Below, piece by piece: positions 3,466 to 42,713 of a stretch of 64,000 nt of DNA. The DNA comes from Laetmonice hystrix (lineage: Eukaryota). The stretch's first letter is position 1. Each line of letters opens with the position of its first letter. The position numbers were made by a program, and so were the translations under genes. The stretch spans positions 31,994,001-32,058,000 of the forward strand of contig OZ249436.1 of assembly GCA_965235115.1 (NCBI GenBank), read 5' to 3'. The notes beneath the pieces were generated by a model that saw nothing but the letters and a program-made list of their open reading frames with translations, ran no database searches and had not been told where the DNA came from.

Positions 3466-5708
3466 CTGTACTACATTTCAACAAGAATGGGACCCTTTAA
3501 CTTAGTGCTTCGTTATGCACTACCAACAGCAAATTACATTATGCTGCATAGCCTTCATTCCAACATTTTCTTTTCTAATAGAATACAGAATTCTAAGTGC
3601 ACTAAACATAAAATTATCAAATCTGCATGATACGCAGAAATTTGATATAGTTATTGAAAAGGGAGTTATTAAAAATCACTACACGCCGACACAAGTCAAT
3701 ATAGATACAAATTATGACACGAAAAGAAAAACTATGAAAGTTACAATGGTATTACTGTAGAAATCACTGGTACATATGAACCTTGCTCTCATATTTTACG
3801 CTTACTCGATATAGGCTCTGACAGTGATCTAAAAAATCCCCCGATCGATGCACCTATAGGGAACCGGTTTGAGTTTGTACCTAAGGAAGCGGCGAAACAA
3901 ACAAAAGCCTAAAATAACTTTAAAGTCAACTATTTGTGGAGTTGTAGATATTTAAAGTGTCATGTAGCCAAAAAGGCCTGAAACTGTGCCCCGATTTCAT
4001 ATACTACTCATCAGTAGTCTGTTCAAATACTTGAAAGTGGGATCATATCCGAAAGCCATTAACGAAATTAATATCTACAACTACATATTCACATTTATCC
4101 TTTCGTTATTCTTATGGCATATAAAAGGGTGCTTTAAATTCCTCTTCCAATCTAAACAATTTGTATTACAACAAAATTTTCCCAGTAAAAGTCAAATTTC
4201 GCCTTTTCCAGCTTTCTAATTCTTTCTGAGGAATAGACTTTATGAAATGATCAGTTTGCCATTTTGCATGAGAAATAATTTTAATATTTTTATTTTAATA
4301 TTGGTCACCTAATGATTTTTACACAGCCTTTCTTCTTTATCTTTTTCTTTCAAAATATAAAAGCATTAATGTACAATAAGCTCCAATGCTGTTCCTCCTA
4401 CTAAAATGTATTTTTGAGCTGTTCCGAGATGACCATATCAATTAAATTACCGGTATGTTGACCAAAAACTCTTTCCTGGAACGGCATGCATGGAGTACAC
4501 TAGCAAATTCCTGGAATGTCATGGTAGATACTCCCCACCCGGCGCTGCAGCTTTGCCTGCCGTTTGGACCAACTCCAACTGGAACTGGAACTAAAGCTGC
4601 TGGAATCTGTGTTAAATGGACTGTGTTCTGATCGCATTGAAAGTGAAACCAGATCCAGCGAGTACACGTAGACTACTGCAAGTGCATTAAGAAACCCTAA
4701 CATCCCCCATTAGAGTTCATTAGACGCCTCAGATTACATCGCCTCTTGAGGTTTTAAATGATCTTTCAAAATGTACGTTCCATCCTAATATACAGCAAAT
4801 GTAAATTTTCCATTAAATAATATGAGTGAACCTGAGCTCCACTTGCCTTAATTAACAGATAAGGTAACATGAGGTCAATCTTACGCATTTTTTCCAAAGG
4901 TTATTTCTACCGAGAGGATACATGAGAAATTTAATTGCACCCCCCCCCCCCCCCACACACACACCTTTCTTCGGGATTATGAGCATCAACAACCTTTAAA
5001 ATTTATTACCCAGAACAAACGATGAATCAAATCAGTTTGGATCTAGACGTGAAGCTAGAATCGACGAGACTAGATACTGGCTAGTCTGTTTCTCCTCCGT
5101 TCAGAACTGTCTGTCCTGAACACGTCATCACAGCTACAGCACCAGCAGTCGTTCCGCCAACACAGGACAGACTTGGGCTGTGGGAAAGCAGCCTGCATGC
5201 CTAGTGGTAATTTCGTCGCTACGTTGGTCGTACAACTGCAGACGGCGGCAGCGGTGGCCGAGTGGTCGTGCCCACGTCATCAACCAAACCTCTCCGCCCA
5301 GCATCCCTGATGAACAAGTCTGACCACCATCTGTCATTTTACACCAAGTGCCCAGTTTTTGTGGCCATCCTTTTTTTCTCAGAAGCAGCTCTGGTTGACA
5401 CAGCGAAGCTTAACACAAGAACGCTCCAGAAATAGACCTGTGATCAGTTGTTGGGGTGGGATGAGGTCAAGGGGTTATTTACAGTGGCCCTCCTCTAACC
5501 GGTGGGGTTGGGGCTGGCTGGCGGGAGCCGCATGCACCCCCACCCTCCCCACCCGTCCAACCCTCGCCTTATTGATCCAAGCCGTTTGGAAGAGTGGCCT
5601 GTGAAAGACGCTGCCCATAATGAAACTTGAATTTGTATAAAGCAGTCATGTCAACAACTGATACTAAACGTCTTGTCTGGTGTTGCTCGTTATTCATCGT
5701 CGGTGGAC

Positions 5709-6197
5709 ATCAGTTCTTGACGCCTGAACACCAATATCTTGGTCCTCTATAGACTAGAATTAGACCAGATAATAAAATAATCAGTTCTCGACGCCTGAAC
5801 ACCAATATCTTGGTCCTCTATAGACTAGAATTAGACCAGATACATTATCAGTTTGTTCCGTAATTTCTCACAAAAATAAAATAATCAGGTCTCGACGCCT
5901 GAACACCAATATCTTGGTCCTCTATAGACTAGAATTAGACCAGATACATTATCAGTTTATTCCGTAATTTCTCACAAAAATAAAATAATCAGTTCTCGAC
6001 GCCTGAACACCAATATCTTGGTCCTCTATAGACTAGAATTAGACCAGATACATTATCCGTTTATTCCGTAATTTCTCAAAAAAAAAAAAAAATCAGTTCT
6101 CGACGCCTGAACACCAATATCTTGGTCCTCTATAGACTAGAATTAGACCAGATACATTATCCGTTTATTCCGTAATTTCTCACAAAAATAAAATCAG
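5709..6197. repeat. 104-bp tandem repeat, 4 full copies plus a truncated first copy
   Basis: Unit tcagttctcgacgcctgaacaccaatatcttggtcctctatagactagaattagaccagata... recurs at 5781, 5885, 5989 and 6093. Confidence 0.95.
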
Positions 6198-7658
6198 CTA
6201 CAACTGCTGTATATTTATGGAAGCCAGGTTGTATGAAGCCAAGCATATTATTTGAGTCTATGGACTGAAGGCCCAGGCTACTGAATGATCTAGTCCAGCA
6301 AGTCCTCTAGGCAGCTGTCCTATGTTAAGCGACAGAGGTCAAAGCAGGACAATGTCACACTATATCCCTGTGGAATGCTTCACCACAGCATAAAGCGAGA
6401 AGAACCTGGTTTATCATAATTCATTGTCAAACGAAACACTCGAGTCTAGTGTTTGAATACAGACGCCCATCCATACCGCCCATCCTGTAACCATGTGTGC
6501 CGGGGAACAGTTTATGATTGCTGCATACAAAATTGAACTGGTGCACCTGGATTAGCGTCAGCTACGGCATTTCGTGCCGTTCCAGCCTCCCCAGAGTGGG
6601 CACCACGGGATATTTTTCACTTGGACAGCTGCCGCTAAGCGCAGACCCACTCTGGTGTCTGCACGTGTGTTCCAAGCACAGCCGCAAACACCCGCGCCGA
6701 AACTATAGTATATACACGGGCAGAGCGAAACTCGAGCCCGAGAAATCAGTGGGAGATAAAGGATCAAGTATCGGCCCAGATCAAACCGTTAAGTTTTTCC
6801 TCCAATTATAACGAGTTATTCTTACTCACACCCCGGATATTATCAGAGGTCGTTAAGGACATGCACTACAGCTGTCAGCTGATCGACAGCAACAGCCCTG
6901 AGTGGGCCGAACTATCCTGTACGGATGCATGGCATTGTAACAGACACTTCTTGGGAAAATGCCAATTATTATACCGACAGCAGTACCATCCCTATATATC
7001 TCCCGGGTATGCCTGTTACATTCTTGTGTTAATAATGGGCGTGTCCCGTCATGATCACGGAGACCATGAAACCGTACCACAACAAGATATCAGACTGCAC
7101 CGTGCACAGTTTGTAGCGGCGGGAACATAACTAACTGCTCAGGCTGGTTTCTCTGTAACAATCATGACTATCCTGAATCATATGTTGGAAATTTGAGACC
7201 CTTCTTTGAATCTCAAGCAGACTGAGACAGGCAGCCAAGAAGTGTTCAACACAGCAGAGCTGCAAATATCACTGAGTGAAATATCATTCCTGCACAACAC
7301 TATTGTACGTTTACTGTACACGCCCAAATATAAGGTCATTGGTGAGCACTCACAGGACTGGTTGCATTCTTGTCATATAACCGAGGTTTTGTACTGACAC
7401 AAATAACCAGGACTTTCACGCCAAACACTGTTACAGGAAATGGTACACTACATGTATTCTACTGTATACATGTTCACAAAAACATATTAAAAGTTCCCTG
7501 GTTGATTCTGACATACTGGACTTTGACCACGTGCTAATCGGTCGACTCAGTTAGCACACGTGCCCAGACACTGCTATACCTAAAGTTGATGACAGTGATT
7601 CGAGTGTTCATGGCTCCTGGCGTCAGAGAGGTGTCTGAGAGGGCATGTCCATCCAGCC

Positions 7659-7832
7659 CTGGCCCTGGATTTTACTTTGCAAACCGAGTCTTAAGATTCA
7701 AATCTTAAAACTCTTGTGTCAGGGCTTCTGATTAGTCCTTCAAATGAAGTCAGCCAATGAGAGACCATAACACAAGTCAGTCTTAAAATTCAAGTCCTAA
7801 GATTGGTAAAATGACAAACTAAAATCCGGGCC
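7659..7832. mobile_element. MITE, same family as 33582-33763 but in opposite orientation; a small related element follows at about 7834-7911
   Basis: ggccc-type termini. Aligns by eye at about 90% identity to the reverse complement of 33582-33763. Confidence 0.85.
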
Positions 7833-10800
7833 TTGGGCCGGTTTTCAAAATTTACGTTCTTGCGCAAGCTTTAACTTAGCACTTCTAAATAAAGTTTCGA
7901 AAACCAGGCCATAACCTTGTCCTCAGTAAAAGTCATGACGCTATAGAACCACCAGCGACGTCCCCTCCATGCTGCTGCTGCTGATCCTCCCCTTTCCCTT
8001 CCCTTCCTCCTCCTCCTCCTCCTCCTTGCCAAGCCCTAGGCTCATTTTCTCATTTACAGATACCATCTGCTACATGCCGTTACCGACATATAAAAAATAC
8101 TTGTCATAGTAACCGGAGTATTTGCCCTGGTTGCCACCTGTGCCGCCACTATCCAGGTGGCCCTGTCTCATACCCTCCCCTATCTACTCCTCTATCTCCC
8201 TCCATCTTCTTCCTCCACTATCCCCTTTCCCCTTACCACCTCTATTTACTGGCTGCTTTTCTTATCTCCTAAGTGTCCAAGCCTTTTTAACGCAAGAGTT
8301 AATTGAGCAGGCCAAAAGTAATTAACGAGATTCTACATCATCCTGGCTCAAAATTTCCACGTGGACGTTCGGTTGTCCAGAGATCATCCACAGAAAAAGT
8401 AGGTCACGCTCAACCACAGGCTTGGACTGATGGCATTGAAGGGAACGTTGAGTTGAGGCCTGGACAGTAGCAAAAACCGCTCCATGTCAACAGGCCGCCT
8501 TGGCCGTCGGCCCAGCCGGCCACCACAGGCCTCCCGGATATATATCGTAGCCCGTGGCCGCCCACCGTCCTTTTTAAAGACGGTCCCCTCCGCTCACTCG
8601 AGGAATGACGACATCAGCTGCCGGCCAGGTATTCCTAGGGTCAAAGGTCACACTGTCAGAGCTGTCACGTGCACGTGGGACTCATACCTGCACGCAAGGC
8701 CAGGTCGTATCAGGTCCTGAGACACACCACGAGATCAGATGTTTTATCAGCTAAAATAGGATCTGGTAAAAACATGTCCATTTTATGCGGGCCATTTGCT
8801 ATCAAATAAGCTTTCTTTCGTCGTTGTTCTTTTTACTGTGTATCTGAGGAACAAAAAGAGTTCTTTTTATACGAGTATACAATATCATATCACGCATATA
8901 TATATGAATATTTTTTAACCCTTTTTCTGGAATGATTCATTCCTTGGAGCAGAACGTATTTTATTACCTCTAGAAACCAGCGTGAATGAACATACTTTTC
9001 ATTCTGCTTCTACAAACAACCCGCTGGCAAGAATATAAAGCGAAAGAAGTGGCAATGCAGAAAGCAATATTCTCTGAGGGGAAAAAGAAGTCGGTGGTCA
9101 TCATTATATAAAAGCACTAAGATGGAATGGTTTGGGATGGGATTGGCGGGGTTGGTGGGGTGGGGTTGGGGGCTGGTGGCCGGCGGTGGCCGTCTACCTG
9201 ACCGCTGCAGACGGCACAAGCAGACTAGCCTGTTTGTACCTAACTGCTCTAACCATCGTCCGTTTCTGTCACTCACGTAGCACTTAGGTCCCCGACAGTT
9301 GTCAGCCACTTTGCTGGCTGCCCGTCTGACCCCTTCCTATCAGGGAATTGGGACTCTGCCCCGGGATTCCAGACGTTGGGACCGTGGGGGGACACTTGGG
9401 GCAGTCGCCGACACTGGGACACTCCCCCGTAACTGAGCGGGAGTGTCCCCTTGGTGAGCAAACCAACCAGCCCCATCTCTGACCAAAATCAATGAATCCA
9501 CCAAGTGAAATGAAGACCTTCCTCCTGATGCAACGGGTCGATTGGCAAACTCCGTTTGGGGTGGGTTTTTTTTATTTTGTTTCATTTCAGTCTGGAAATT
9601 TTAAGCAATCAACTCCCAATAGAGCCGCTGTTTGTGTTTTTTTAATTGTTTTGCGACGACGTTCACTTGACCAGTTTGTTTCTCGTCACTTTCACCTGGT
9701 CAGAATCAAATGACGAAGACGAGTGGTAAACATCGGGCGAATCCTTCTATCCAAATCGGTTTGATAATGTAGTTTGTTTCTCTCTTTCTTAACAGTGTGG
9801 CCTCACAATCCAAGCATACTTTCCAGTAACTCCAGTAAATAATTTTGTATAAAAAAATGTAGGTTAAGTGCTTTAAAAGTCAAACACGCCAAGCCTTCCG
9901 ACAAATCGAAATTCACTCTACCTATATTTACATCTACGGAATTTCCCGGAGAAGTTAACTTTCATATAGTTCATACTACTGCTATAGAGAATTCTTCCAT
10001 GGTTCAAAGTCAGATCCATTAACGTGACGAACAGCACCATTTACAGCCACTGTCACCCTGGGATAGGCCAATCTGCAGCAGGATGATCAAAGAAACCTTA
10101 CAACAGTGTCGTACATAGGCCAAGGTCCAACTGCATCACGTGAAATTACCCATGCAGTCCGTCAGGCCGACAGCCATTACATTAAATCAAAACGATTGCT
10201 TCGCTCTCGCTCTTTTTCAAACTCGTCCATACACCATGGAGTTCTTTTACAATTACCGTATGCTGAAAAACATAATACTAACCGAACGCTTGCGGCAACT
10301 AGTATAGTAAACCACTGCCAAGATACAAGGAGGCACAGTGTCAAAACGCCAAATTGTCTACTGTCGCCGACTGGCATGAAAAACTGCGAAAATCTTTTTT
10401 TTACTAATAGGCATGAAATACTGATGGGTTCCCATTAATTTTAGAAGCAAAATTATATCTTTCTTAAGGTTAGCACCTTTTTCACAAGACAGCAATTAGT
10501 CCATGGAGAAGAACTGTGGGTACGGCTGATAGAAGTCAAGGTCTGCCTCCTAAAAAAAGCGGTAATGGCATCGTGGTCGGATAAACTAATTATTACTTGT
10601 GAAACACTGCACACACGGGATAATTTCAATCAAGGCAACCACGTCTGTGCCGTTCCTTCAAAACACGACATGGAGGTTTAGTGTTGCCGCTGCAACTTCT
10701 GTAAATCGGATTGACCACGGCAGGCTGACGGGCTGCACTCTCTCCAACACTGGCAATCATCTCAACAAATGTTGTGTGTACGGGAAGATATACGCACTGC

Positions 10801-11912
10801 GGCTAAGCGGATATAAACCAGGCCAAACAATACGTACCACTCTTTCTATAAACACCATGGTAAATTTCATATTACCGGTAACTGCATGTTGAGGGGGAAC
10901 TGACAACAAAATCCAATAAAATATATTACAATATTGGATCAGATATAAATGAAATATAAATGGTTTTTGTGTAAAATTCAGAGCGATCACCGACTCCTTG
11001 TCTTGCCCTGGTGTACGTGCAAGGAGCTCTTGTCAGCATGAATTCTAGCACGTGCTCAGTTCGTTACATTTCCCGAATGCCAATATTTATAGCCTCTCAT
11101 ACATGGATACCAAAGATGTTGGCCACGCTGCTGCTGCTGCTGCTAATCACCATCATCATCATTGCCATCATCAAAAAATCCTGATTGGTGTTGGCCTATA
11201 TCAGACCATCTCTGTGCTGAAAACAAGAGCAGCGATTAGGGCCAGAAAATGTTCCTGTAAGAGTACGACCACTGTGTCTGGAAACTTTCACACAACCTCA
11301 ACAACTAACTGTCTTGTTTGTTCCATGAATTCGCCGAGCCGCAGATGGCCAGCCGCTATTTCCTTGTGACCAGCCCCCACCGGCACTAACCCAAGATGCG
11401 CAGCCCAGGGTCACCTGGGGATAGTTACCTGTCATCGCTGTCTGGTTAGAAATGACATATGCTGCACTTATTAAGGTTAACTGCCCCACTTGGCCTGCCT
11501 TGCAATTCTTAGAGCATGGAGGAGAAACACGTACTTGAAAACAGCCTGGATATAGCAAGAGTAGTCAAAATGACCAATCCCCCATGCCCCCTCCCCTAAA
11601 AGTGTGCGCAGGTAATTGGTGCCTAAAATTAGCAACATCGGGCCGGTTGAGCAATGCTAGCCGCTAGACCAAGGCTGGAAAATATGTGGTCACTTCATAA
11701 AGAGCGGAGTATTCTGGGACTTATCAGGACGGCTGAAGTGAAAGTTTTGGTCCGGTAGTGGCCATGATGGAGGGGGTGGTGGTCCTATGAACGGTTTCCT
11801 CGCCACAGCCCACAGCTATGGGAACCTAACTTTAAATTAAGTGACAAAAAACAAATTGAATGAGGAAAAAAAAAGGATTTTGAAATTACTGAATTGATAA
11901 TTGATGCGATAA

Positions 11913-12360
11913 GGCTGAGTTCACATAGGAGTATACGGTATACGGTGTACGGTATTCGCTATTCGATATACGCTATACGGGCACGGCGAGTCACGCCCGC
12001 CAGTGTCTTAATTCCCGACATGAATTGAAAGGTGCCCCCCTGCCCCTTCCCTTGAACTGATTTCTTTGCAATTTTTAGAGTCAATACCCCTATATATCGG
12101 CCCTTAGATCTGAAAATTTAGTTAAAAAATATCAAGAACTGTGTAAATGGTGAACTTTTAAACACCGGCACTCCAAGGTATACGCTGCACTAAAATCGAA
12201 CACGCACGATTCCCACTATACTATACTATACGCCTTTTCGAATAGTGCCCTCTGATGTGACCCGGTATAATAAGATCCTATTGTACGATTTAAGCTATTC
12301 GCGTGCCCTGCAAAACGTGCACCGTATACCCGTGCCGTATACTCCTATGTGAACTCAGCC
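11913..12360. mobile_element. PIF/Harbinger (Tourist-like) MITE, 448 bp, TAA target-site duplication
   Basis: Perfect 26-bp TIR ggctgagttcacataggagtatacgg, with TAA on both sides (11910-11912 and 12361-12363). Confidence 0.92.
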
Positions 12361-14741
12361 TAATGGAACCGCCCATTGAGTTTCCATATTTTTAAACCTA
12401 TATTATATACCAGTTCGGTAACAAATACACTGTTCTCCCGACGGTGCATGCTGTCTCGTGCAGACGTGCTCCCGCCACAGGCCAAGGCCGACACTGACAC
12501 ATGGCAAGGACGCAGTCACTCGGGAACAATATTACATGACGGTTTGTCACGCTAAAAGGTCTCCGGATTACGGTGTAACTGTCACCACCCTTTACTCACG
12601 GCTCCCAGAAAGGCAGCGTAATGGCAGCAACATTCGGTGATTATGCGTCTAAACTGCACCATTACATTCGCTGACGATAGGTAATGTTCTTTAGAGGGAC
12701 CCGAGCAGTGACGTGCCCCGACATTCCGTGATCAGGCCAGGGCAATCCTACAAGTCCCCCTTCAACATTAAAATTGCAAGGCCCAGACAATTCATCCGTA
12801 ATACCCTGCAAGGCCATGATTTATTGTTTCTGTCTGCCATCGTTACCAGTGTCTGGTTACAGCAGTCTAAATCGGTCTGCTGGCTTATTCTGACAGGCCT
12901 GCCCACCACATTTCTCTCTCTTCCCCTACTGTCTCCTGCCACCACTTGCCTTCGTGGATCAATGACACCTGCTTACCCCCAAATACATATTCCTCTGTTT
13001 GAACCATGTGAAAACAGCATCTGCAATGGGAGGCAAGCCACAACCCTTCACTTAGCAGAATCACCTTGTCAGAGAATTATTAAACAATCATCAATCACCG
13101 CCAAGATGGGTTCCAACTGTGTCAGGATTTTCTTTTTCTGCACAAGAGCACTTTAGTTCAGATTGACTCGTATCCCGTCTCCTCTATATAGATTTACGCT
13201 AATTTCGGCAAAAGGAAATGGTTTTAAATTCCCATTTTCTAATGAGTGACACTTGATGCAGATGGATTTCTTAATGTAACTGACTGTAACCAGCGCATCC
13301 TTCATTATTGAAAGAGCAGCACATCCTTCAACCTGTGGTGTTCCCCTTAATCTCTGCGGTTTTCTTTATTGTTTCTCTGATGCATTGCATGTAGCTCAGC
13401 TACATGCAATTCCACCAGTCCAGTCTCGGTGCCGTTGCAAGGCCAGATTTTGAATTTGAGGAGTCACTGAAGAAGAAGCAGAATCTCAGTATCTTCGTCG
13501 TTGTCTCAATCTGTATGAAAGACTAAGTGTGAAAGTGAGACCAAGGCGGGGGAACCAGATGTATACAGCTGCGACTGCCACTGCCTGGGCTCCAGGACCA
13601 GCCAAGGGAGTTCAATATGGGCTATCTCCACCGTCACCCAACTTATCGGTACCGTGTAGGGGAATTGTTACGGAAGATGTCAAAACAAAGTCTGCCTCCA
13701 TCAGCTTCATGGATTTACATCCCATTCAGGGTCATTACAATGACAAGTCCATTTACTCGACTCTTGTAAATGAATTACAAATGCATTATAACTGTACAGC
13801 TTCAAATATTGGATTAAGTTTTTTTTCTTCTCTGACTAGACGTTGCACACACAGATGTGGATACCGGGAAAAGCAGGCAACGTAACAATTTCTAGGCACC
13901 GGGAAATCATATTGATACAATGTGTTTTGCCTCTTCTTGTGTCCTAACAAGAAAAGCTTTAAATGTTAAAAGATTAGGGTGTCCAGGAAAACCGTTTAAA
14001 GTTTTTTTTTCACCTTCCATAAACAACGCCACATGATATTTCTACCCTCTAATTTCCACATTTTTAAAACAACATCGTAGGCACACTCTACTTCTCTAGT
14101 ACGACAAACATGTCCGAGACTTGGCTGACTGGCCCAGCATCCAGGTATGATGGAATCCTTCAGTAAACCTTCACTCCCTCCCAGACTCATCCATTAAATT
14201 ATACACGGGACCTCAGCCTATTCTATATTATGCAAAGCCATGGTTTATCGGGCTGATTTCTCCCGTTACCACCAATAATAGATCAAAGTCGGAGATAAGT
14301 GTTGGTTGGTGGGATGTGATGGGTGGTGGTCGCCTGCCCCTCGCATTTCTGACGCTTATAGTGGTAGAGTAGGGAGATTGGTGATGATGGGGGTGTGGTG
14401 GTGGTGAGGGGGGGGGGGGCAAACTGCCATACCAACCAACGTCATCAGCCTGGGATCCACCGGATCCAATGCAGACACCATTCAATCAGGCCAGCAGCAG
14501 CACGGCCACTGCTTATAATCACGGCAGCCAAACGCACTTCTCAACAATTTCGCACTTCACCGAAATTACTTTCATTCCTGTATGTACACAACAGAAAGGC
14601 ACCATAGCTCATCATATACCAAAGCCTCTTTCGTAATTAACATGCTGTCATAAAACAAAAAGTTTACGAAAATTACTCAATACACCCATTAATCTCTCTC
14701 CCGTCGACTTTTGATTCTTCCTAATATTCTTCTGGGACCAG

Positions 14742-14906
14742 GGCCCGGTTTCAGAAAGGTTAGCATGATCTTAAGGCTCTGCTTAGCCTTTTAGGACCCC
14801 TGATTGGCTGGTCCTCTGCTGCTCAGCTTCATCCAGCCAATCAGGGGTCCTAAAAGGCTAAGCAGAGCTTAAATTAAGATCATGCTAACCTTTCTGAAAC
14901 CGGGCC
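14742..14906. mobile_element. Near-perfect palindromic MITE, 165 bp, CAG target-site duplication (Harbinger-like)
   Basis: About 70-bp arms ggcccggtttcagaaaggttagcatgatcttaa...tgattggctgg and their reverse complement. CAG on both sides. Confidence 0.92.
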
Positions 14907-16768
14907 CAGGGACCAAGACTACCATATTAGATAACATTACGACTTCGGACTCGACCCAATGCAACGCCGGAGGAATGAAGAACTCCTGAAAGGTGTAGGA
15001 CGTCAAGAACTGCTGAGTTTGCCGTAAATTACAACTTGCTGAGACGGCTTCCTGGCCGGGCCGCCAGCGAGCAGTGGAGACCACTCGTGTTGAGGTCCTG
15101 GCAGAGTGTGACAAGGAGAGATCCATTCCATGGCGAGGTGTAAGCGACATGACAGGTGCTCTTTGTGCCAGCTGACATCTCCTGGCAGCACGGAGACCTC
15201 GGCTTGGTTCTCCACCACTCGGGGAGGAGCATCAATCACATCAATACACACCCACTCCCAACACTACCACGACATCGGGCCCAGTGTCACACCATTCCCC
15301 ACCCACAGCGTCACAATGGCGCATTTTCTTATACAGGTTCCGGATTAAAGTTCACAACACCATTCTGCCCTGAACACACACCAACATGGGAGCATAGGTG
15401 CATTTCAAAGCTCAATCTTAGCTGTACGATATTGCTATGGTTAAAACCTCCAGCTGATATGGGGAAAACGGTCACACCAACCATTAATTGTCATGCGACA
15501 TTTATGTAGACACAACGGAATACCAACGACAGTGGGTCATGCCAGCTACGCATACTGTTCGTACCGCCAGCAGTCAGAAATCTGATAACCGTAGACCATA
15601 ACTTAGGTTTGGAGTACGACTCCTCCAATAAATCAACTACCGGACTCTATGGCCGGCTAGATGCATCCCGTCTACAACAGGACCCCAATGCCTCACCGTA
15701 CACTTTTTTCTTCCCAAGGGGGGAGGGGTAACAATACGCTACCTATACTTATGAAAATAGAACTTGTGCTTTTTAGACGCCTAGGTTCTTTTACCGACTT
15801 GAATAAAAGGACGCTGGTACATCCCTCTATTTCAATAAAAGATCAGTCAAAAATCTCCCTTTCTATCCACCCCCACCCTACCCATGCACAATAAGTTGGA
15901 ACACACATGAAAACCTGTCCTCGTCTTTCTTCCCGCTTGAGCCTCAGCGCAGAACCATCAAGGAATCTGCTGATAATCTGTGATTAATTCTACAATTTGG
16001 CATGCCTTAGTTATTTCTAGGACACGTAGAACTGTTCTCCATCTTTGGTTTGTAAGAAAACCTAATAATTACCACTGGAACACCATGTCATTAACGGCTA
16101 TCCGTCTTCAAAACCCTGATTATACAACAGGTACCAAGGACTAATTTAAGGAATGCGCGAAGGAAAGGCATAACGCTACAATTTCTTGATTCCTTCTACG
16201 ATGATGCGGACAAGTGGGGTTTGTTTTCTTTAAAAATTATATAGATCTAGTTTTTGTGGAAGGTACCTGTCCGAATAACCATGTCCCCATCTTATCAAAT
16301 CCACTGTAGCTTCTAATTACTAACATGTTCATTGTGTAATTACATGTATAAGGATAACAAATTACAAATACTCTCCATCCGATATAAAGGGATCTATTCT
16401 AATTACTGAAACACTTGTGACGATTGCCAACCTTGGTTAATTTTCTATCATGAGTGTCCATCCCAACCGAGGGTGGCCATGGTATAGGACAGCCATGGTA
16501 TAAGACGGCTATGGTATTGGACCTTTTGTTTCTGACCACCTCAAGTTCTGGGAGGTTGTGATAGAACGGTGATGGGGCAGCGACCACCGACCGGGGGACG
16601 GGGGTTAACTCCGGTTCTCTCCGCCAACAAGTCGCCCAGTGGGACGGTCTGGCAAGGAACATACAGCCGCTTATAATACAAACCACCTTCAAGCAGGGGC
16701 TGGGGTTAGGTGCGGTCAGGTGGGATCCGGTGATAGGGTGGTGCAAACAAGACAGAACTAAGAAAGCT

Positions 16769-17135
16769 GTGAGTGTGAGTGAATTGGAGGTTTTATGCCC
16801 TCTCGGCAGTATTCCAGCCATATTGAAGGCGATATGAACCATATAATTCAGTCAAGCAACCTATTGTAGGGGAGTCATGATGAGGATGAAGTGAGATAGA
16901 AACCTGCCACTGGGAGGCAATCCCCTATTCTTTTCGAAAAATGGCAAGGGTTCTTTATATATCCTCAATCGCAGAGACACGGCTGGACAACGCCTTTGAT
17001 GACCCAGTAGCGGAGCACTGGGGAGGTCCAGTGAGGAAAATGGTATTGGAAGGATCCAAATCTACCTGTGCCACGCAGCTGATTTTACAATCCGACAAGT
17101 TTTGAACCTGTGTCTCGACTGGAGGTGCTAGCATG
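16769..17135 (-). mobile_element. Decayed tRNA-derived SINE with a Nin/Deu-type central domain and a (cact)-like tail
   Basis: The minus strand shows a B-box-like ggttcaaaac. The core ccagtgctccgctactgggtcatcaaaggc...atataaagaacccttgccatttttcgaaaagaatagggg...gtggcaggtttc and the tail atatggctggaatactgccgagagggcataaaacctccaattcactcacactcac resemble molluscan/lophotrochozoan SINEs (recalled, not searched). Confidence 0.7.
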
Positions 17136-17515
17136 CATGTATGTATATCCAAACATCATCTCGGAGGATGGACACTTTTCTGGTGGTGGAACAAATGATT
17201 ACAAAATAATGAAATTGACACGTTGCTGGGACTGGGACAAACCTATTACCTGGAATGTTGTTCTAAATAAATTGCAGAGTTATTTTCAGGTTACCCTGGA
17301 GTAACCCATAGGGTTGACCCCATAGTTACACTAACAGAAATCCCATGGTTACACTAACAGAATATGTGATAAAGAGCTCATGTTAACTTCACTCTGACTT
17401 TACTCTGACTATTCTTCATTAACTGTAGGATTCAGTCTGACAGCTTCAACTGAACGGCTTCATTGCCTGCACGCACCATGCACGGTGTGAGACTTTCCGA
17501 CGTGACGCAACTGAC

Positions 17516-17600
17516 CTTTACTGGATGTCGTTCACAAAAGTACGTTACTCACCTGAAAATAGAAACAGAAACAGTCAATTACATAAGTCATGTGCCCACT
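17516..17600 (-). other. Candidate recursive splice site (junction 17553|17552) with a 37-nt cryptic exon (17552-17516)
   Basis: Sense strand reads aattgactgtttctgtttctattttcag|GTGAGTaacgt. Downstream donors are AAG|GTCAGT (17515) and ATG|GTGCGT (17476). Confidence 0.7.
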
Positions 17601-20600
17601 CTGCTTCGCAATGAAACATAAAGGAGATTACTGATGAAATAACACTATTCGCTCTCTTTGGTACATAAAAATAATATTTTCATTTAAGTTGGTAGAATTT
17701 GTGTAGCTGACAGAACGATAATCTGCCCACTGCTTATACTATTCCTTTCCCCCAGCATATTCTATTTTAATAACTCAATTTAAGCCCATCTGGGTTACAG
17801 CCCAAATTACGGTTTCAACATGTTTTCGCATACTGGAGGGACCTTGGACAAAGCTTGAGGGTGGCCTGTCTATTTATATCTCCCTATTATCCTAACTTGG
17901 AGATTGGATCAATTATCCTAATTGTCCATCGCTCAGCCATCTGGCTCACTGGTTGCCAGTCAGCATTGGTCAAAATCTCTTGTGATCACATATTTATACG
18001 CTTTCCTGCCAAACACGTTTTGGAAAATGTGAGGAAAAATGAGATACTTTGGTGTTATCTTGAGTCATTATTTTGGTGAATGGAATTGTTACTAATGATA
18101 ACGGTGAGTGATGCAAGGACTAATCATTTCATACGTTTTGTTGTGGTTAGTGTTATTTACGCTTTTCGTAACGGTTTACCGACCATCTAGCTTAGCCTCG
18201 TCTGAGTGGACGGAACTGGATCACTCACACAGAGACACCTGACTGATCGCTTCTGTCTCATCTCACTGAATCTGAGGCGAGGAGACAACGTTGTATCTTA
18301 AAGGTATGAAAATTTCATTTCAACAAATTCCTCCAAACAGCCAACGTATTCGCCGTTAGGTTCATGAATACGTTAATATTATATTTTAGAGATGCCGCAA
18401 TTTTGAGAAAAAATAAACTTAATCTTTTTTTTTTTTTTTTTTTGGGGGGGGGGGGGGTTGACGGATATAATAAGGACAATGACTAAGTACATAGTGCTAC
18501 ATTATCCACTTCTTTCTCCCAGATTCAAAAGCCGAAAATAACCTAATGCATGCAACATACATGTATATATTTAAACTCCCCTTCCCTCAGCGACCTTGGT
18601 ACGGTGACGTGTAACTATCGTCCTTAGTCGGTCCCAGGGATTCTGTTAGGACTACCAGCGAGGTGTATTTCGTGCGACAATCTGCTGGAAAAACGTCAAT
18701 CTCCCGAACACCCTGTCTAAACTGATCAGGCAGTCTCCAGCTCTCAGAGTGCGTCAGGTCACCGTCCATCAAACACACACACACAAGGTTATAATACATG
18801 GCCCTGTGTCAACATCTCTGGCCGTACAAACATGCGACGCAATCTTGTCGCGTTTGATGGAGGCCATTGTGGTATTACAGGAAGAGCCAAAAGCCACTGC
18901 ATGCATTTAATTTCGCAGGGCCACTGTTGGCTAAGTGGCGCTAAAGCTGCTGAATGGGCACCTGCCGGTGCCAGGCGGAGTGCACCATCAAATCCCCGGG
19001 CCCCAGTGGCCACGGCTGAGGGCTGACCACTAGGGAAACGTTACAGCCCCATGACGACGACAACTCGTTACCTGTGTCTGCTGAGGCAGCACTTGGGGCC
19101 TGCTAATGATGAAACGGACAACTTCCAATTAAACGATTTCTTGTCAGACATACTGTCAGGCAATCGGCTCATTAGGCAGCGAGCATGTGGGTCTTCTCGA
19201 AGGGTCATGCCCAAGTGTGGGTCTAATCGCCTTTCGTTGCCCTGCTCTGGACACCTAAAACTCACTCACTTTAACTCCTCAACTCACGATCAAGGTCAAA
19301 ACCCAATAAGAGCCCGGCCTTTAATGACATTTTGCCAGTTTCACGAATCTATAACCTTCAAGCACTTATGATTCTTACTCGACGTTACTAGATCTACTTG
19401 TACCAACGGGGTCGAATGGTTTTGTCAGACTTCAACTAATTAACAGTTATAAAACCTGAACGTGTCAACGTAAGCCAGAAATTCTACATTGAACATGACA
19501 GTAGGCCCCATATAGTATAAAAGTCCATTTTCTAAAGATGTTCCGGGGGAAAATGCTGGTTGTAAAGCTATAAGGTTAACTTCATGGACCAAAGCCTCTC
19601 GTTATGTCCATGCTTAATCCTTTCACTTAACTTGCAGAGATCGGATTTAATGCGATTCTTCAACCCGAATGGACAATTTAAGAGACCCCTTGGTTGTACT
19701 CATAATTACGATGTCATTCAGCCAAACAAGGCTTACGAAGTATTCTATAACAAGACTCTTTATACGGCAACATCAAGACCTGATGGTGATACTGACCACT
19801 GGTTCCCTCAACATGAACATAATTCAGCCGTATATTTAAGGCTCCTACTTTTGTAACATTCAATAAAGGTTTAAACACCCCATCAAAGGATTGCTCTTTT
19901 AAAAAGGGGAAGGGCGTTTTTCGTCCAGAATATAGAACATAATTGAGATGGTATTTTAAAACTGATTGCCTCTCTAGTTTACAAAATATTGATGAAGCAA
20001 CACATTAAGTTGAAACGCATGTACACGCCGTGCAGTCAGTTATCTTAATTGTATATCTTAGCGATGGAAATAGAGTCGATTACTGCTACAGCACAGTATT
20101 GTCAAAGTTTTAGACAAGCGCAGATTCATTTCAACACTTTAACAAGCTGATCGAAAGATATGCTGGCCCTTTTCACCTATGTCACCAACATTTTCAACCT
20201 ACCATCTCCACAAGTCATGCAGGATTTCAAAATGTTTCACATATAACATACAGGATCCTCATAAGACAAAATACCACATAGATCGAGTTTTCCTAAACCG
20301 ATACTTTGTACGTTTTGCTGTATTCACATTCAATACTGGGGCAGTAGAACCTCGTAGTATATAATTCTTACGACGCTGATTTCTTTAAGACCCAGCGTCG
20401 TGTTCTGCTCGCCTTCCATCTCGTTGTTCTGCACGTACTTTGCATAAATCTGCTGACTAAGAGCGGGACGCGATGCCTCCACAAAATCCTACCCGATCCC
20501 TGCTAAATGTTCATATTTCTAATACTTTCAGCGAGAGGCAAATGGCAGCGACCTGAGACAAGGAAATGGGACATATCAAGTTATATGTGGTTGCCTTTTT

Positions 20601-20899
20601 TTCTGCGATTGTGAATCAAACTTAACTCCGACTCATTATATTATATACATGTACCTGTGGTTAAAGTCGTCAAGCACCGACCTATCAAGTGACACTGATC
20701 AGTGCATACAGCGGTTTGACGTCTGCTCACGTGAACTGTAACTAAAGGCCCGAGTCCGCACGCTACTTTATGACCGACTTCATGACTGTCTACACACTCG
20801 TTACCACCGACCGTTGTCTGTTAAAGGTTCCCGTCTTATTTTCTTCATGCATCAAGGACTCCCCTAACAAAGATACGGGCCTTGGCGGCGCTTCTCCAC

Positions 20900-21035
20900 C
20901 AGAGGCCAAGTTTTTCCAAACTTATCTTCTTGGTTAAGCTCAGGATCAACGCTTCTGATTGGCTGGTCTGCAGGAACCAGCTAATCAGAAGCGTTAAGTC
21001 TTAAGTTTAAGCGAGTTTTGAAAAACTGGTCCCTG
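20900..21035. mobile_element. Degenerate palindromic MITE related to 14742-14906
   Basis: Core aacgcttctgattggctgg...ccagctaatcagaagcgtt, imperfect ggccaagtttttc/gaaaaactggtcc ends, CAG/CTG flanks. Confidence 0.7.
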
Positions 21036-21144
21036 TTGTATTTCGTAACACAACGTCCCTGGAATCCGATCATCTTAGCATGTCCGGTGGAACACCATCG
21101 AACACCAGATGCTCAATTTAGTCCTACACTACAGTGTAAAAAGT

Positions 21145-21175
<31 letters not shown>

Positions 21176-23853
21176 GGTCTGCGAGTCTGGATCAACATAC
21201 GCGACCACAGCGCCATCTTTTTCTTCAACTGTCTGTATCAGCTAGTAACCAAATTTTCCCCACGCCATCGTATGTATTCATGCTGGCCAGTCTCTTTTTT
21301 CTTCACAGGACTTCACGTGCTATCCCATAGCACTAGGTACCCGGAACCACATCTTATATCAACTATTCAATATTGGCATAATTACCCTTTATATTAACTG
21401 CGCCGTAAATGTAAGCCTGTCGTAAGCAAGTATGAATTCCCAACTGGAGAACACCTGAGCACCATTGGCACTGCGAAGTTTGGAAAGGTCAGGCCAAACT
21501 GCAGCTACCAATACCACCTTAACAATTCATCATATTCCTTGGCTTGTTTTTTGGCACATCCTAAGCTAAATTCATGACACAGTGTTCTCATAACGAAGCT
21601 AATGTTTCCTCTTGGAAGATTTTAAACAGGCACTTCCTGAAGGCCAAATTTGCTTTTCTCTGGCAAAACTTGTAATTGGCAGTGTAGGAGGCATGCAATC
21701 ATGTTACTCTATCTCCAAAATAGTCTTCATTGATGTAAATTTAATAAGTAAACAGTCTAAACAAGCTGATTTGAGGCACTGAATCAAAGTGGAAAATGTC
21801 AATTTCCTGCAGTAGGAGTCCTGAATATGGACTCCATGTGTCCTGGTATGCCCCTTGCAATGCTATCTGATATACTTTACATCCCCCTCTACACGAACTG
21901 CATGAGCTCATATTGTCAAACTGTCACTGCTCCCCTCCACATCTGATTGGACCGACCGTCTGCAGCCGTCGGCGCCAGTGTTTACGTTTATATCAAGAAA
22001 AGCGCACAATATCATTTAATACCTTGTCCTGGACTCCCTCCTCCAAAATCCAGGGTCTTTTCCCGTATAAACTTAAACGGGGACGTTTCTCGCAATATTT
22101 AATTAGCAGCTGTCGAACATGGCCTCGGTTAAATGTACCTTGTTTCAGTTTATGTTTTAACCATGCAGCTACAAAAACGTGTTTTGAAGCCTTACCATTC
22201 TGTGATGCACTGAAGTGCTTTAAATAGTCCAACAGTAAACAACTATAACATCTATAAATATCTCGATATTTATTTTATGTGACCTGTCACTACCTTTGCC
22301 TCAAGATACATTTAATACTTGTGTCATTTATTATACTTTGCAGCCTCAGATTCAATGAGCGGTTTTACAAAAGTACAACTTTAAAATAGCAATATTTTAT
22401 CTCCTAATTATAAATAAAGAACGAAATGGAGCTCCAAAAATGTTAACGATGTGAAACTTAAAAATCCGAAATAATACTTCCCCTTCGCCTAAATCCTGCA
22501 CTGTCTTCACTACTGGCACATTGATTGTAATGATGGTAATATTGTTGATGACAACACGAACTCCACACCCAGTGGGGATAGGAACGCAGAAATAAGCGAC
22601 CATTTTTTGGCCATTGCAAGCTGTCTTTTATTCATTTATAATTACCGCACACCCCAAGCCATGGCGCTGTGCTGTGATTATGCCCGCCTTTCTGTCGGCG
22701 GCGCTGTCAGCCAACCTCAACCAGTGAAACCGTGCCTCCCCCTTCCTCGTCTTTCTCCCATGTCTCCTGCGACGCCGACAATGGTGAGACGTGGCTGGAG
22801 GAGGCGTCGTCGTCCCGCCAGCATCCATCTGCCAATATCTCATTCTTAACCTCAGACAATGACAACTAATCAGGCAACAGGCTCGCCGCCACAATCATAA
22901 GTGTGGTCCGCCGCGCAATACCTGCGATATCTTGACAAGAACAGGTAGTGTACTAATTTCGGGACAATGTCAGACTGCCTGTTGGCATTGGCCATCTCCT
23001 GTTCAGATTTATCCAGCGGAGTGGGCTGGAAGGAATTAGCTTATTCATGAACGGAGGAAAACGTCGCTGTAACGAGCACAGGCTAGCGTTACAAAATACG
23101 GAGAGGTAGTCTGCAGAAAGATTTGGACTGACTCGAGCAGTGAGATGATTGGCGAGATGTGGCTAAATGTCTGTCTCGCCCCTGTCCCTTTGTTTAGAAT
23201 GAAGAATATCATCCCTAAAAATAATGATTTCATCAATAAATAGGGGGTTTCCCCACTCTGTTTGCTTCTATTATCTAAGTGAAAATGTATGGCAATGATA
23301 AATTGTATGCATAGTGATGATACTTTCTGGCTCCGCCACACAAAGAAGAGAACCTTATATCCAATCAAATATATCTGAACTATATCAGAAAGCATCTTTC
23401 TATTGTATCTCAGAAATATGACTTCAAAATCGACAGCACCCACAGTGCTGGAAAAAAATGCCTACCGTTTTTACGTTAGGCTACACTCACAAAAAATGAG
23501 ATTTCACAAAGAATTTCAACATTAAATTTTGTTTTTGACTATATCTTTGCGTCCCTTTTTCGACAACCGTCAAAACCTGGGTATTGCATCGAGTTTCATA
23601 GGCCAGGGTTGGGGGGGGGGGGGAAACGAATGATACCGATATTTTAGACCCCGTCATCACATCTTATACTGCTGCCTGCTGCAGCTGGCTGATCCAATCA
23701 GTAAGCTTGTAACAACCAGCCATCAGGCGAACCTTCACGCTAATGGTTCCGCTGCCTCAGGTACGTGATCTGAGGGCAATTCGGCCACTCTTCCTCGGCC
23801 TCGCATCACGGGTCTCCCAAGTATCACCCAGAATGCCTGTCACGACAATCGAA

Positions 23854-24095
23854 CTGCCCTTATTCTAACATCATTCAAACTGCATCCTTTTGGCTGCCCT
23901 TATTTTAACGTCATTCAAACTGCATTCTTTTGGCTGCCCTTATTCTAACGTCATTCAAAATGCATCCTTTTGGCTGCCCTTATTCTAACGTCATTCAAAC
24001 GGCATCCTTTTGGCTGCCCTTATTTTAACATCATTCAAACTGCATCATTTTGGCTGCCCTTATTCTAACATCATTCAAACTGCATCCCTTTGGCT
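23854..24095. repeat. 40-bp minisatellite, about 6 copies
   Basis: Unit ctgcccttattctaacatcattcaaactgcatccttttgg. Confidence 0.95.
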
Positions 24096-24494
24096 ATCGC
24101 TTCTGTTGTGAGGTAAGGTCGAAACCTTGATAATGTCCACACACAAAATAAAAAAAGAAATAAAATTCAAGCGCTGCTTTAGAGTCTTGGCCATGGAAAA
24201 CGACAGGGACCAAGGCAACACTGTCTCTTCTTGAACATCTTACAAATCACTGAGGGAAAACAGGTCGTATGTTGATAAACATCTAGCCTTATTACGTTCC
24301 AAAAAAACCGCGACGAAACCACTGATACGGTGGCCCCACCAGGTGTGCCGACAGAATGTGCCTGACGGGGCGAGAAACCAATTAAAGCAAGGCTTCTGGC
24401 GTCGTGTTGGAGCCGACAATCGGCTTCCACTTCCCCGCTACCTTCTAATGACACATGTCTTCTAACTTACAATCAGACCGTCAGACATTATATT

Positions 24495-24815
24495 ATAGGG
24501 TGGGCATAACAAAAATTGTCGAACTTCGACGTCAAATATTTCAAAAACCATACGTCACAAGCTTCTGAGAGGTTATAGGCGTAAATACCTTGATGTTCCT
24601 AACATTTCTTGACATTTCCAAAATGATATGTCAAAAATAGTCCCTCCATGAGATCAAGTTGAACCAGGTAGGACGTTATTACAACTAAATCAGGAACAAC
24701 ATTTTTGAGACACAATTTTAATTTAATTCACATCTAAGGACAATGTGAGATATCAACATGAATATTTCAACAGATGTTTAGCACACGAGGTTTTTTTAAA
24801 TGTCCACCCGATATA
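24495..24815. mobile_element. Possible decayed Tc1/mariner-type MITE
   Basis: Ends tatagggtgggcat and atgtccacccgatata are imperfect inverted repeats with TA flanks. Confidence 0.35.
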
Positions 24816-26001
24816 AGAACTTCTTCTTCAAGTACACACGTTGGTCTATGTCGGTGTAATTAGGATTTGTAGACCCAGACGTAAAATAATTATAAGGGAA
24901 AGAAAAAGATAGGGGCATACATGTTGTTTGTAGGTTTAATGTCTCGGTGGCTCAGGATGACATGCCATCAGTTTAGAATTGGGCCAGCCTCGGCCTGCGT
25001 GCGGACGTCGTGACTTATTACTGTCTTCAGACTAGAGACAGAGAAACACCAGCCGCCACAACCGTGCCTTTTTGGTCGTGCAAGATTAATTTTACAACGT
25101 ACAAATCTTGGAATTCTGATCTTTGCAAACGTAGACAGAGCAAAAGAACCCATCATAACTAAACAAGAAAAATCGTCACAAGCACCGACCAACAAGAATG
25201 CAGTGACGGGTATGATTTTTGTCAATGTTACTTTATTTCAGATTCTTTCATGCCGTCTGTGAGCACTGCTGTGAAGCGAACCTTTTGCTATCATTGAGCA
25301 CCGACAAACAAAGATGGAATTACCGACGCTATTTTTCACGAGAAATCACTACTTTATTTCATTGGCAATGCCTTGGGGCCCTTCCAAATATGGGAACGCG
25401 CTTCTCAGATTGTGTGCCATTCTAAATGTTGATGTTCAGGCGAGCAGGCGAGCAAGATTTAAATAATTTCAAGAATGATAGGATGCAGTCAGCTTTTTGT
25501 GAAGGTTATTGCAGAAAATCTACGCTTTGAGAGAAATCGACTCGTTTTAATGTTTACCCTCTGCTGTTACAGCATATATGTGGAGGAGACTTCTCTCAGG
25601 CAAAGAACAGAATTAACCTCAACTCTTTCCTTTGACCCCTTCAGGAAATACTGCGAAAATTGGACAATCCCTTTTATCCGGACAAAAACCTTTAAACCTT
25701 TTAAATGAGATTTGTCTAATTTAATTTGTCCACACGCAATATTTTGCCCCTTTCTCTGTACTGAAAGGTCAGTTTCCCATGTAGTTAGATCGGTCCCCAC
25801 ACGGGGGTGCCACTGACACATTTTGGTCTATTTATAGGTCGAGGATCAATGGCATTCGAAATGCAAAATCAGAGGTCAGTTGAACTGGAGGCCTGAGAGC
25901 ATTCCCACTTGTTCCAACAGGTATAACAGTCAGTCCTATAGATTTCTTGGAGTAACACCCAAGGTACGACACAAGACGGTAGACCAGAAACAACGATTCG
26001 T

Positions 26002-26250
26002 GTTCTTGAGCTGTGAACTTCCATGGTTCTTGAGATGTGAACTTCCATGGTTACTGAGTTATGAACGTCCATGGTTACTGAGCTGTGAACGTCCATGGTT
26101 CTTGAGCTGTGAACTTCCATGGTTACTGTGCTGCGAACTTCCATGGTTACTGAGCAGTAAACTTCCATGGTTGCTGAACTGTAAACTTCCATAGTTACTG
26201 CGCTGTAAACTTCCATGCTTACTGAGCTGTGATCTTCTATGGTTACTGAG
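26002..26250. repeat. 24-bp minisatellite, about 10 copies
   Basis: Unit gagctgtgaacttccatggttact. It explains the 8-aa periodic ORFs on both strands. Confidence 0.95.
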
Positions 26251-29200
26251 AAGCCAGAGACTCCAGGTTTCAAAACTTTAATACCATGAGAAGACATGGA
26301 TCTAATTTTTTAAATAGTTCAAACAATCTTAACAAATGCGTTTTAAGATTGTAAACTATAAGATAATTATTAATTTTCCTAAACTTATCTCTAACGGTGA
26401 TGCTTTAAATCAATTCTAAATACCATGAGTACGAAATGCCAACGTGCATAAAACCTTCATAAGATTATTTTGACATGACGATATAATAATTCATATGAAA
26501 ATCAATCGAAACCATGGGACACTGCAGTTGCTATTTTCGTCCTGTGGACGGCGGTCTCAGCTCATACAAATCAAGGCCTAGGGGGCCATCGTGTGTCTGT
26601 GCCACTGTGAATCAGATGACAACCCATCTCAATTCACATAAAGATGACGAAGGTTGAGTAAACTACATGGTTTATTCTCGTGTTCTGCTTCCCGCAGTCG
26701 GTGATCTCCGACCGCCGCCGGCACCGTGGGGAGCAGGAGGAGGGGAAGGAACAGGAGGAGCGGGAGCAGGAGGAGGAGCAGCAGCAGCATCCATCACTGC
26801 CGTCGTCCTGCCGGCTCGCCGAGCTCGGTCCGCCTGTGACAGTTCTAGGCCGGAGCTCGCCGCCAATAAGACGGATCACACACCGGTCCCAATCACACTA
26901 CATGTACAGCTAGACACCCGGCTCCACGACGACGACGGCGACTAAAGACAACGACAACGACGTATCTCTCCGAGAGCCCTCCCGATCTAATACTCATCCC
27001 TATGATGGAGAAACTTGCCAATCCCTCATCCTCCGTTCATCAGAAATCTCAAGGTCTCATCTTTCAATGTTTATGGGAACACACTGAGAAAAAACAGACA
27101 AGTTGACACACATCCCGCATTTAGGAAAATCTCAAGAAAACAGTCCCTGCTGTCTTCAATCCCCTCAGAAAAAATACTCTCCTTCGGTCAACAAGGGTCT
27201 GTGTTAGCTATCTAAATGTTCCCGATTCAGTAAAGCTGCCATGAGTTATCATCAACTGTTTTATGTGACCGCGATTATTTACACCAGCATTAGGTTATTT
27301 ACATCTATCACGCCATATTTGCTCTTCAGTCTATTTGTATTGAATTTGTCATGTCTACTCTGATATCTTTGTCTGAAAGTTATCCTTAAACTTACAATAA
27401 TAACAATATATAAATCCTTGTCTTTATTATGGTACACAAATTTATGTACACCTCCATCCAAGTCATATTTTACTATACCAGATATAAAGTATGGGTAATT
27501 TTGGTCATCAAACGTCAGTCCAAGTTATTCTGAGTTAACTATACGTGTACTTTAAGATTCCTAATTTAGAATGTCCCTACTTTATGTAGTTACTCTTGAC
27601 GGAGGCAGCAAACCTTCTTCCTCGGGTTCCATCTTATTGTGTTACTTTCAAAATGACCCGGTGTTTGGCGATCTTTGCGGTCCCTTCATCATGGACCTGT
27701 ATTACTCCCAGTGCAGCTGGGTGCAGCTCATCTCACCCGTACATCTCTTCCTACCATCTTTCTGATTTGAGAAGTCAAAGGTATGGTGATGAAGTGCTTA
27801 CAGGGACTTACTACACGATGATTCCAAGAACTGAGGTTCCTTTTCCTATCGACCAAAATTTACGTTTATATTACCAGACTACACATACCTTTCTTATCAT
27901 TGATGCCCATAATGATAACGATTCTACTACTGAGGGGCAAAGTCACTATCATTAATTATACAAGTGATAGATCTTCAGGGTGAACAAACTGATATTGAGA
28001 GGTGTTTCCCAAAAAATGACCCTACTTGAGACTAATTACACTAAGACAGAAACCCCAGTAATTGCTCAGGCGTTGTACTTTAGTTTGTATATTCGTGGAG
28101 CACACCTACACGTAAAACAAATTTGTGCACGATACAGGCACAAACATGTATGACTTGGTGATCATTTTAAAGATTACGGGCAATCGGACCTGCATCAGAA
28201 AAACGTCCCTCATCTTCAAAATAACATCCTCCATGGTACAAAGAATGTTTGAGCCAATTTGTATGCCTGCAGCATGACTTGCGCCTTTTTTCTTGTTAAA
28301 TTCTAACTCTAACCTGTTAAGTTTACAAAATAAGACAGTTCTTAGACAGGGCTAACATGACACTAAGAGGAGACTCGAACGAGGGTATCATATCCTGAGC
28401 CAAATTTATCAGAAGTAACTTGACTAGGCCAGCAGGTGTTTACACACAAAAAACTACCAGACCCACACGCTAGGACGAAATGGGCAAAACACGCTCGAAA
28501 CGAACATTCGTTCAAAACTGACACCATTGACATCAACCATGGGAGGCCACAGTTGGCTTTGACGCCTCAATGGATTCAACGCTTGTGAATGTTTCATGTT
28601 GTCACAGCAACAGTAGGCCACTACTAAAGGATGCGGTAAGCACAGGATAAACAGCTTTCTCTCTCTCTCTCGCTCAGGGTCGCACAATTGCAGTGATTAT
28701 TTGCTTAAGGGAGAAAGCTATGTATGCAGAGTGCATACACTAAAAAAAATTTGAGGAAAGGACCTTTCATTGTATTGGTATTTCCATAAAATTGATAACT
28801 TTGAGGAATTTACTGATATGATCCAAAATCTCGACACAGTTATGATGATACTGATGTCTAGACGTTTTCCAGCTATCTTTCTCCCTTACAAAGGGCACGT
28901 AACTACCAAGCTGTATCAATATTATTATCAACGCGAATATGGACTGTGTGGAACAAAATAGAAGATTCCACTCGGAGAAGCCACAAACAAACCTGACCAA
29001 ATATATGACAACCAGGAGTACGGGTATTAGCACTAGCAACACCTACTAACTGACCCAGATGTGTAAACCCTGTATCGACCCATAAATATGCTTCTGATGA
29101 TGATCCCCGCAGTAAAATCAATACATCTAACATGACGGCAAAACCGATTACGTCCCTGTTTATATATTACTCACGCAACAAAGATTCCTTTCATGAGAGA

Positions 29201-30043: not shown

Positions 30044-30256
30044 TTAAGGTTTTGATAAACGATGTTCAAATACAGCTGGGAGCAACTGCAGCCTATTGAT
30101 TTGACCCTATTATACCAAGCTGTGTCCCTCCGGGCATCACAGCGAGTGTTCGGTTATCCAACACCTCTAGTTTATATCCAGTTGGCCACCTGTGGGTTCT
30201 GAAATAAAACGATGTCTGTACAAATAGCAAGGGCCTGTAGGACGTTTGAGCGAGTG

Positions 30257-42711: not shown

Positions 42712-42713
<2 letters not shown>

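Follow-up and report, generated by a model that had tools for sequence, protein, structure and literature searches.

The locus described here raises the question of whether the very long third intron of a CaMKII gene is removed in a single step or in pieces, through an intronic site at which an acceptor is fused directly to a donor. The site lies at positions 17552/17553 of the window, by which we mean the whole 64,000-nt stretch of DNA that was analysed. Its sequence suggests a recursive splice site (ratchet point), the second of two in CaMKII intron 3, and one that is probably used. The earlier note had proposed a ratchet point at this position; its anatomy and its strand bias, the size of the intron, and the lengths of the segments agree with that proposal, while the two-donor layout attached to it was over-read.

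The gene, which lies on the minus strand, is CaMKII, and five of its coding exons fall within the window (Table 1). In an exon-by-exon comparison that took in nine of the 120 listed proteins, all 88 residues of exons 2–5 are identical in Octopus CaMKII, and 86, 80, and 76 of the 88 residues match in Lottia, Ixodes, and Clunio, respectively, so that the host is probably a spiralian. Exons 3 and 4 exactly fill the 39 residues that separate exons 2 and 5 and, since they supply all of these residues, no coding exon is missing inside intron 3. The homologous proteins leave no space for an extra coding exon at the place of the cryptic exon described below, and positions 58648 and 1014 are genuine CaMKII exon ends. 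The two candidate sites, at 32070 and 17552, split the intron into segments of 26,577, 14,518, and 16,538 nt.

Table 1. Exons of the CaMKII gene, its third intron, and the candidate splice signals within that intron (window positions).
Feature	Positions	Strand	Length (nt)	Remarks
CaMKII coding exon 1	60598..60662	-	65	starts at ATG
CaMKII exon 2	60074..60168	-	95	residues 17-47 of PDB chain 3kl8_A, E 1.3e-12
CaMKII exon 3	58648..58707	-	60	upstream partner of the intron
CaMKII intron 3	1015..58647	-	57,633	phase 1, GT...AG
Upstream sister module CAG/GTGAGTGACGT at 32070	32012..32072	-
Branch-point-like TTGAC	17574..17578	-		A at 17575 (-23); from sequence
AG-free zone and pyrimidine tract	17555..17598	-	44	16/20 pyrimidines ahead of CAG
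Candidate 3' splice site CAG	17553..17555	-
Candidate ratchet-point donor GTGAGT	17547..17552	-
In-frame TAA	17545..17547	-		read as Gly, Glu, stop when exon 3 is joined in phase 1
CGT at +9..+11 of the ratchet donor	17542..17544	-		opens the CGTTCC motif, which is complementary to U6
Candidate cryptic RS-exon, short form	17516..17552	-	37	frame-shifting
Downstream donor AAG/GTCAGT (+37)	17510..17515	-		8/9 positions match the consensus, the C at +3 does not
Candidate cryptic RS-exon, long form	17477..17552	-	76	frame-shifting, doubtful
Further downstream donor ATG/GTGCGT (+76)	17471..17476	-		7/9, near chance level
CaMKII exon 4	960..1014	-	55	downstream partner of the intron
CaMKII exon 5	554..619	-	66	residues 87-107 of 3kl8_A, E 3.2e-8

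A TTGAC branch motif, an AG-free zone, a fused junction, and two downstream donors had been reported for the site, and all of these elements are in place on the minus strand. The junction reads tgtttctgtttctattttcag/GTGAGT, in which 17553 is the last base of the acceptor, and thereby combines 3' and 5' splice motifs around AG/GT with a pyrimidine tract, as recursive sites do. A further candidate branch adenosine is found at 17588 (-36). The site also resembles recursive sites in its placement, in sense orientation inside a very long intron and several kilobases from its neighbours. Once exon 3 is joined, the donor would become TAG/GTGAGT; in its genomic context, CAG/GTGAGT is a perfect donor, matching all nine positions of a crude nine-position score. 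Such a donor might simply end an alternative first exon that starts from an internal promoter and is joined to exon 4 in a shortened transcript. A stop codon lies eight codons ahead of the junction in the phase that exon 4 requires, however, and coincidence would have to account, twice over, for the branch motif, the pyrimidine tract, the AG-free zone, and the downstream donor, which makes this explanation very improbable. Conversely, the strong acceptor and the in-frame stop that immediately follows it would suit use of the acceptor alone, with an alternative last exon starting there and cutting the transcript short, but neither AATAAA nor ATTAAA occurs in the 1,553 nt downstream and the fused donor is left unexplained; of the explanations considered here, this is the one to which we give the least credence.

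The last exon bases in front of the two downstream donors are 17516 for the +37 donor and 17477 for the +76 donor. By the crude nine-position score, both of these donors (8/9 and 7/9) are weaker than the ratchet donor (9/9), in agreement with the weaker donor that ends the short cryptic exon of recursive sites. A donor that scores as well as the +37 donor sits 30–90 nt behind 1.8% of the intron positions, and one that scores as well as the +76 donor behind 13.6%. Of the two alternative downstream donors described in the earlier note, the first is notable, while the second, of a strength that chance gives in about 14% of cases, was read too generously; this weak +76 donor may owe its presence to chance. 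The non-consensus C at +3 of the +37 donor counts against the ratchet reading, as does the commonness of GTRAGT on the sense strand.

Retention of either form of the cryptic exon leads to Gly-Glu-stop and ends the protein after 75 residues. The same observation could describe a regulated poison exon, in which inclusion of the 37- or 76-nt exon stops CaMKII after those 75 residues and mRNA decay lowers the level of the kinase in some cells. The premature stop or frameshift on inclusion that such an exon calls for is present here, the in-frame stop falls at the third codon in the 37- and 76-nt exons and in the 53-nt exon at 32070 alike, and layouts with a zero-length exon have been tied to decay in rat tropomyosin (cited in the available part of PMC2773006). 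However, the stop arises largely because the donor consensus is read in phase 1, and a perfect donor at the first base, present in both exons, would serve no need of a poison exon. Moreover, the donor at +1 (9/9) is stronger than the downstream donors (8 and 7), an arrangement that predicts skipping in flies according to the accessible text of PMC8605326. We regard a poison exon as improbable.

A 77-nt stretch free of AG precedes the sister site at 32070, which carries the same GTGAGT donor as 17552; its candidate cryptic exon of 53 nt (32070-32018) is followed by the donor GTG/GTAAGT at 32017. The flanks of the two sites had been called unrelated, and this is upheld by the comparison, in which the only likeness is a 17-nt stretch at the junction (16/17 identical, E 0.25-0.32); the site at 17552 is accordingly not a duplication of that at 32070. 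Within 31805-31988 (minus strand), just past the 32070 cryptic exon, each copy of an 84-nt two-copy tandem repeat bears the splice-like ctttcag-g-gtc-GTGAGT, and this repeat is followed at 31805 by a weaker TAG/GTAAGC with 14/20 pyrimidines and a 25-nt AG-free zone. This may be a mirage-like copy or else a third site of lesser strength.

The frequency with which such modules arise by chance was examined by defining a full module as a strong acceptor fused to GTGAGT with a donor 30–90 nt downstream. Intron 3 holds two full modules in the sense orientation (32070 and 17552) and none in the antisense orientation. Among simulated introns, two modules occurred together in 1 of 400 sequences of Markov order 2 and in none of 400 of order 5 (1/800 overall), and at least one module occurred in 11/400 (order 2) and 9/400 (order 5), that is, in 2–3%. 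The intron contains 1,939 YAG trinucleotides, 35 of which are strong acceptors; GTRAGT directly follows a YAG in two cases, both of them on strong acceptors (Fisher p 3.2e-4). For a strong acceptor fused to GTRAG, two sense and no antisense occurrences stand against 0.14 and 0.07 expected, from 150 simulations each. The two sites rank at the top of the 12 sense YAG/GT candidates and are the only ones that match at all four of positions +3 to +6, although under looser criteria sense (12) and antisense (10) candidates are alike. The thresholds were fixed after the sites had been seen and the window was chosen among many, so these chance figures overstate the case.

The hexamer GTRAGT itself occurs 36–37 times in the sense and eight times in the antisense orientation of 1015-58647 (binomial p 2.5e-5). 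This sense excess was considered as a signal and rejected, as it mostly reflects strand composition: the sense count fits the order-1 and order-2 expectation (34–38), and the antisense count of eight is below its own expectation of 14–20. In the longest (26.6-kb) segment, weaker YAG/GTATG sites with good pyrimidine tracts are found at 47865 and 42444 (minus strand); the antisense strand holds comparable sites, and these two are therefore not above chance.

These figures bear most directly on the possibility that 17552 is a chance or decayed motif, never or only noisily used, and that the intron is excised in a single step. At least one module is seen in 9–11 of 400 simulations, a figure inflated by window selection; with many windows scanned, single-module cases of this kind are bound to be picked, which argues against the ratchet reading. 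The second allele is without visible constraint, and only 6% of long fly introns are recursive in the available portion of Duff et al. (10.1101/006163). On the other hand, two complete sense modules with typical spacing in one intron were obtained in only one of the 800 simulations, and beyond the donor consensus both sites share RACGT, whose CGT is found in none of the 34 other GTRAGT sites (Fisher p 0.0016). Taken with these observations, a chance origin is unlikely, and we return to the ratchet reading below.

A further concern was that the motif might lie inside a dispersed repeat present at many loci. When this was examined, DNA depth over 17418-18376 was found to be 31–78, the single-copy level, and the ratchet reading came through unharmed; this depth derives from three public runs of one sample that behave as genomic DNA contigs and are possibly the assembly's own source, and thus not independent. 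A search of public sequencing runs with 15500-18500 listed these three and no RNA run, which does not bear on expression. The site (17470-17600) is also outside all 30 tandem-repeat rows. A repeat-borne or 'mirage' copy of the gene's own junctions was rejected on the basis of the single-copy depth, the absence of a tandem array, and the absence of a long match in the window. Nearby, 16733-17417 is a high-copy dispersed repeat whose summed contig depth climbs to 26,880 and which begins some 60 nt further downstream than the +76 donor, and a lower-copy repeat lies near 16459-16595. An exact 23-nt pattern across the site gave no matches in metagenome contigs, a search of low power for an animal intron, and Rfam gave no matches within the window. 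Among 15 of the 23 joints in the DNA contigs, none falls at 17552, 17516, or 17477, as is expected for DNA.

The same contigs reveal a second allele. Its listed differences fall at 17466, 17489, 17582, and 17758 (a further 47 rows over 4.1 kb are unlisted), and they spare the branch motif, the tract, AG/GT, and the donor hexamers. Over 17152-18408, the allelic difference is about 0.7–1.0%, and the contigs carry a 17-nt insertion at 17358 within a 23-nt minisatellite. The 71-nt core is unchanged in the second allele, an outcome with a probability of 0.48–0.60 anyway, given 9–13 differences in 1,257 nt; in the block 17470-17600, two differences are listed, against 0.9–1.4 expected. The second allele shows no sign of constraint at the site.

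RNA folding was considered as well. The idea of a stable fold overall was discarded (z -0.63, with 42 of 200 shuffles as good). A helix of 12 bp plus 4 bp is predicted between 17573-17590, the branch region, and 17498-17516, at the +37 donor (minus strand), with a duplex energy of -16.9 kcal/mol. Its pairing probability is about 0.7 in the 181- and 301-nt folds and 0.31 in the 501-nt fold. The 12-bp helix is mildly unusual, stacked helices of at least 12 being found in 13 of 318 intron tiles, and is window-dependent; the second allele disrupts one of its G-C pairs, at 17582. If formed, the predicted helix would hide both signals and would count against the ratchet reading.

By analogy with fly ratchet points, on which all of the splicing steps are modelled, the intron would be removed in three steps: exon 3 would be spliced to 32070, re-spliced to 17552, and re-spliced again to 1014. 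The short cryptic exon, mainly in its 37-nt form, would be recognised by exon definition, and this recognition would activate the acceptor at 17553. Exon 3 would then be joined to 17552, either directly or after the first step at 32070, and the donor TAG/GTGAGT would be regenerated. The regenerated donor would beat the weaker GTCAGT and GTGCGT and be spliced to exon 4 at 1014, leaving an mRNA without trace of the event, while rare use of a downstream donor would give a stop-containing transcript that would be degraded.

One shared feature lies outside this scheme. The CGT at +9 to +11 of the ratchet donor recurs at the same positions of the 32070 donor (32060-32062) and of the +37 donor (17505-17507, minus strand). 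It is present in only three of the 136 donor-like sites of the intron, namely both ratchet donors and the +37 donor. Three in 136 is no excess overall (1.4 expected), but all three belong to the five donors of the modules (p 2.4e-5); none of the five constitutive donors has it. The pattern was noticed post hoc and on three sites. CGTTCC at +9 to +14 pairs with positions 38-33 of human U6 and promotes donor use at STAT3 exon 21, according to the available text of Kramarek et al. (PMC11162779), and it is conceivable, speculatively, that the CGT adds pairing to U6 snRNA. The ratchet donors match this motif at 4/6 positions (5/6 with G-U) and the +37 donor at 4/6, while 4/6 matches are found at 2.7% of intron positions and at 2 of the 34 other GTRAGT sites.

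Several observations temper this idea. In the accessible part of PMC8283771, U6 is described as favouring U at +8, contrary to the A found at this position in the CGT-bearing donors here. In fly ratchet points, CGT at +9 to +11 was found in none of the 47 rows, out of 539, that were inspected by eye (PMC6110457 S1 Table), and five of the 16 possible AGT-NN-CGT words were absent from the 539 rows of this table as available, in which a control word was found. The CGT of the +37 donor is also inside the predicted 12-bp helix with the branch region. For STAT3 exon 21, the pairing is reported to have been demonstrated with suppressor U6 at a tandem donor that is weak and non-canonical, in contrast to the sequence coincidence at three sites with strong donors described here, for which the human U6 sequence was used. 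Among the papers listed by a literature search on recursive splicing and U6 snRNA, none deals with this by title or abstract. We put forward, as a doubtful proposal, that the ratchet donors of this intron are marked by extended U6 pairing and that the choice between re-splicing and a poison exon may be set at the hand-over to U6 and not by U1 competition alone. The mechanism of recursive splicing is itself already known; the shared +9 to +11 motif is the sole element here that might add to it.

Among known systems, the site likely works like a Drosophila ratchet point with a cryptic RS-exon. The sources compared here were available in part, and the comparisons hold within those parts. Fly ratchet points (kuz, Bx, Ubx, and luna) likewise consist of a strong acceptor fused to GTRAGT in a constitutive intron of more than 50 kb, with segments near 16 kb, a branch A at a distance like the -23 seen here, and a short out-of-frame exon with a weaker donor. 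Fly recursive segments span 2.6–63.6 kb with a median of 16.4 kb (16,368 nt), and the branch points of recursive sites in flies are found between -36 and -21 (Duff et al., 10.1101/006163); the segments of 26.6, 14.5, and 16.5 kb and the branch A at -23 fall within these values, which argues for the ratchet reading. In the normal fly layout, an out-of-frame cryptic RS-exon of about 50 nt has the weaker donor and is skipped by donor competition (Joseph et al., PMC8605326). The likeness to kuz extends to two evenly spaced points in an intron 3 of about 50 kb. The fly sites differ in being known from junction, sawtooth, and lariat reads and from conservation, whereas the CaMKII site is a prediction from genomic sequence, and its host is probably a spiralian, unlike Drosophila. 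CaMKII was not found in the available part of the fly ratchet table (PMC6110457 S1 Table), a weak negative.

In its mode of prediction, the site is closest to the RP-sites of other invertebrates, which were predicted from sequence as a sense-over-antisense excess in introns of more than 50 kb. This excess was found in all five invertebrates examined by Shepard et al. (PMC2773006), and amounts to 4- to 22-fold in sea urchin, bee, beetle, and fly. In its accessible text, that survey covers four insects and a sea urchin, includes no spiralian, and does not treat cryptic exons; the density here is two sites in 57.6 kb. The vertebrate RS-exon sites share exon definition, competing donors, and stop-containing cryptic exons with the model proposed for the present one (Sibley 2015, via PMC8605326 and PMC6110457), and only nine fully suppressed intronic recursive sites are noted for mammals in the summaries given by PMC8605326 and PMC6110457. 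Among the papers listed, a literature search found no report of recursive splicing in a CaMKII gene, and none in annelids or molluscs, most subscription papers lying outside the search; three papers that mention recursive splicing and either annelids or molluscs once each deal, by title and abstract, with other matters. Flies and vertebrates have proven cases of recursive splicing, and for other insects and a sea urchin such cases have been predicted; if the one in this probably spiralian CaMKII gene were confirmed, it would fill the third branch of the bilaterians.
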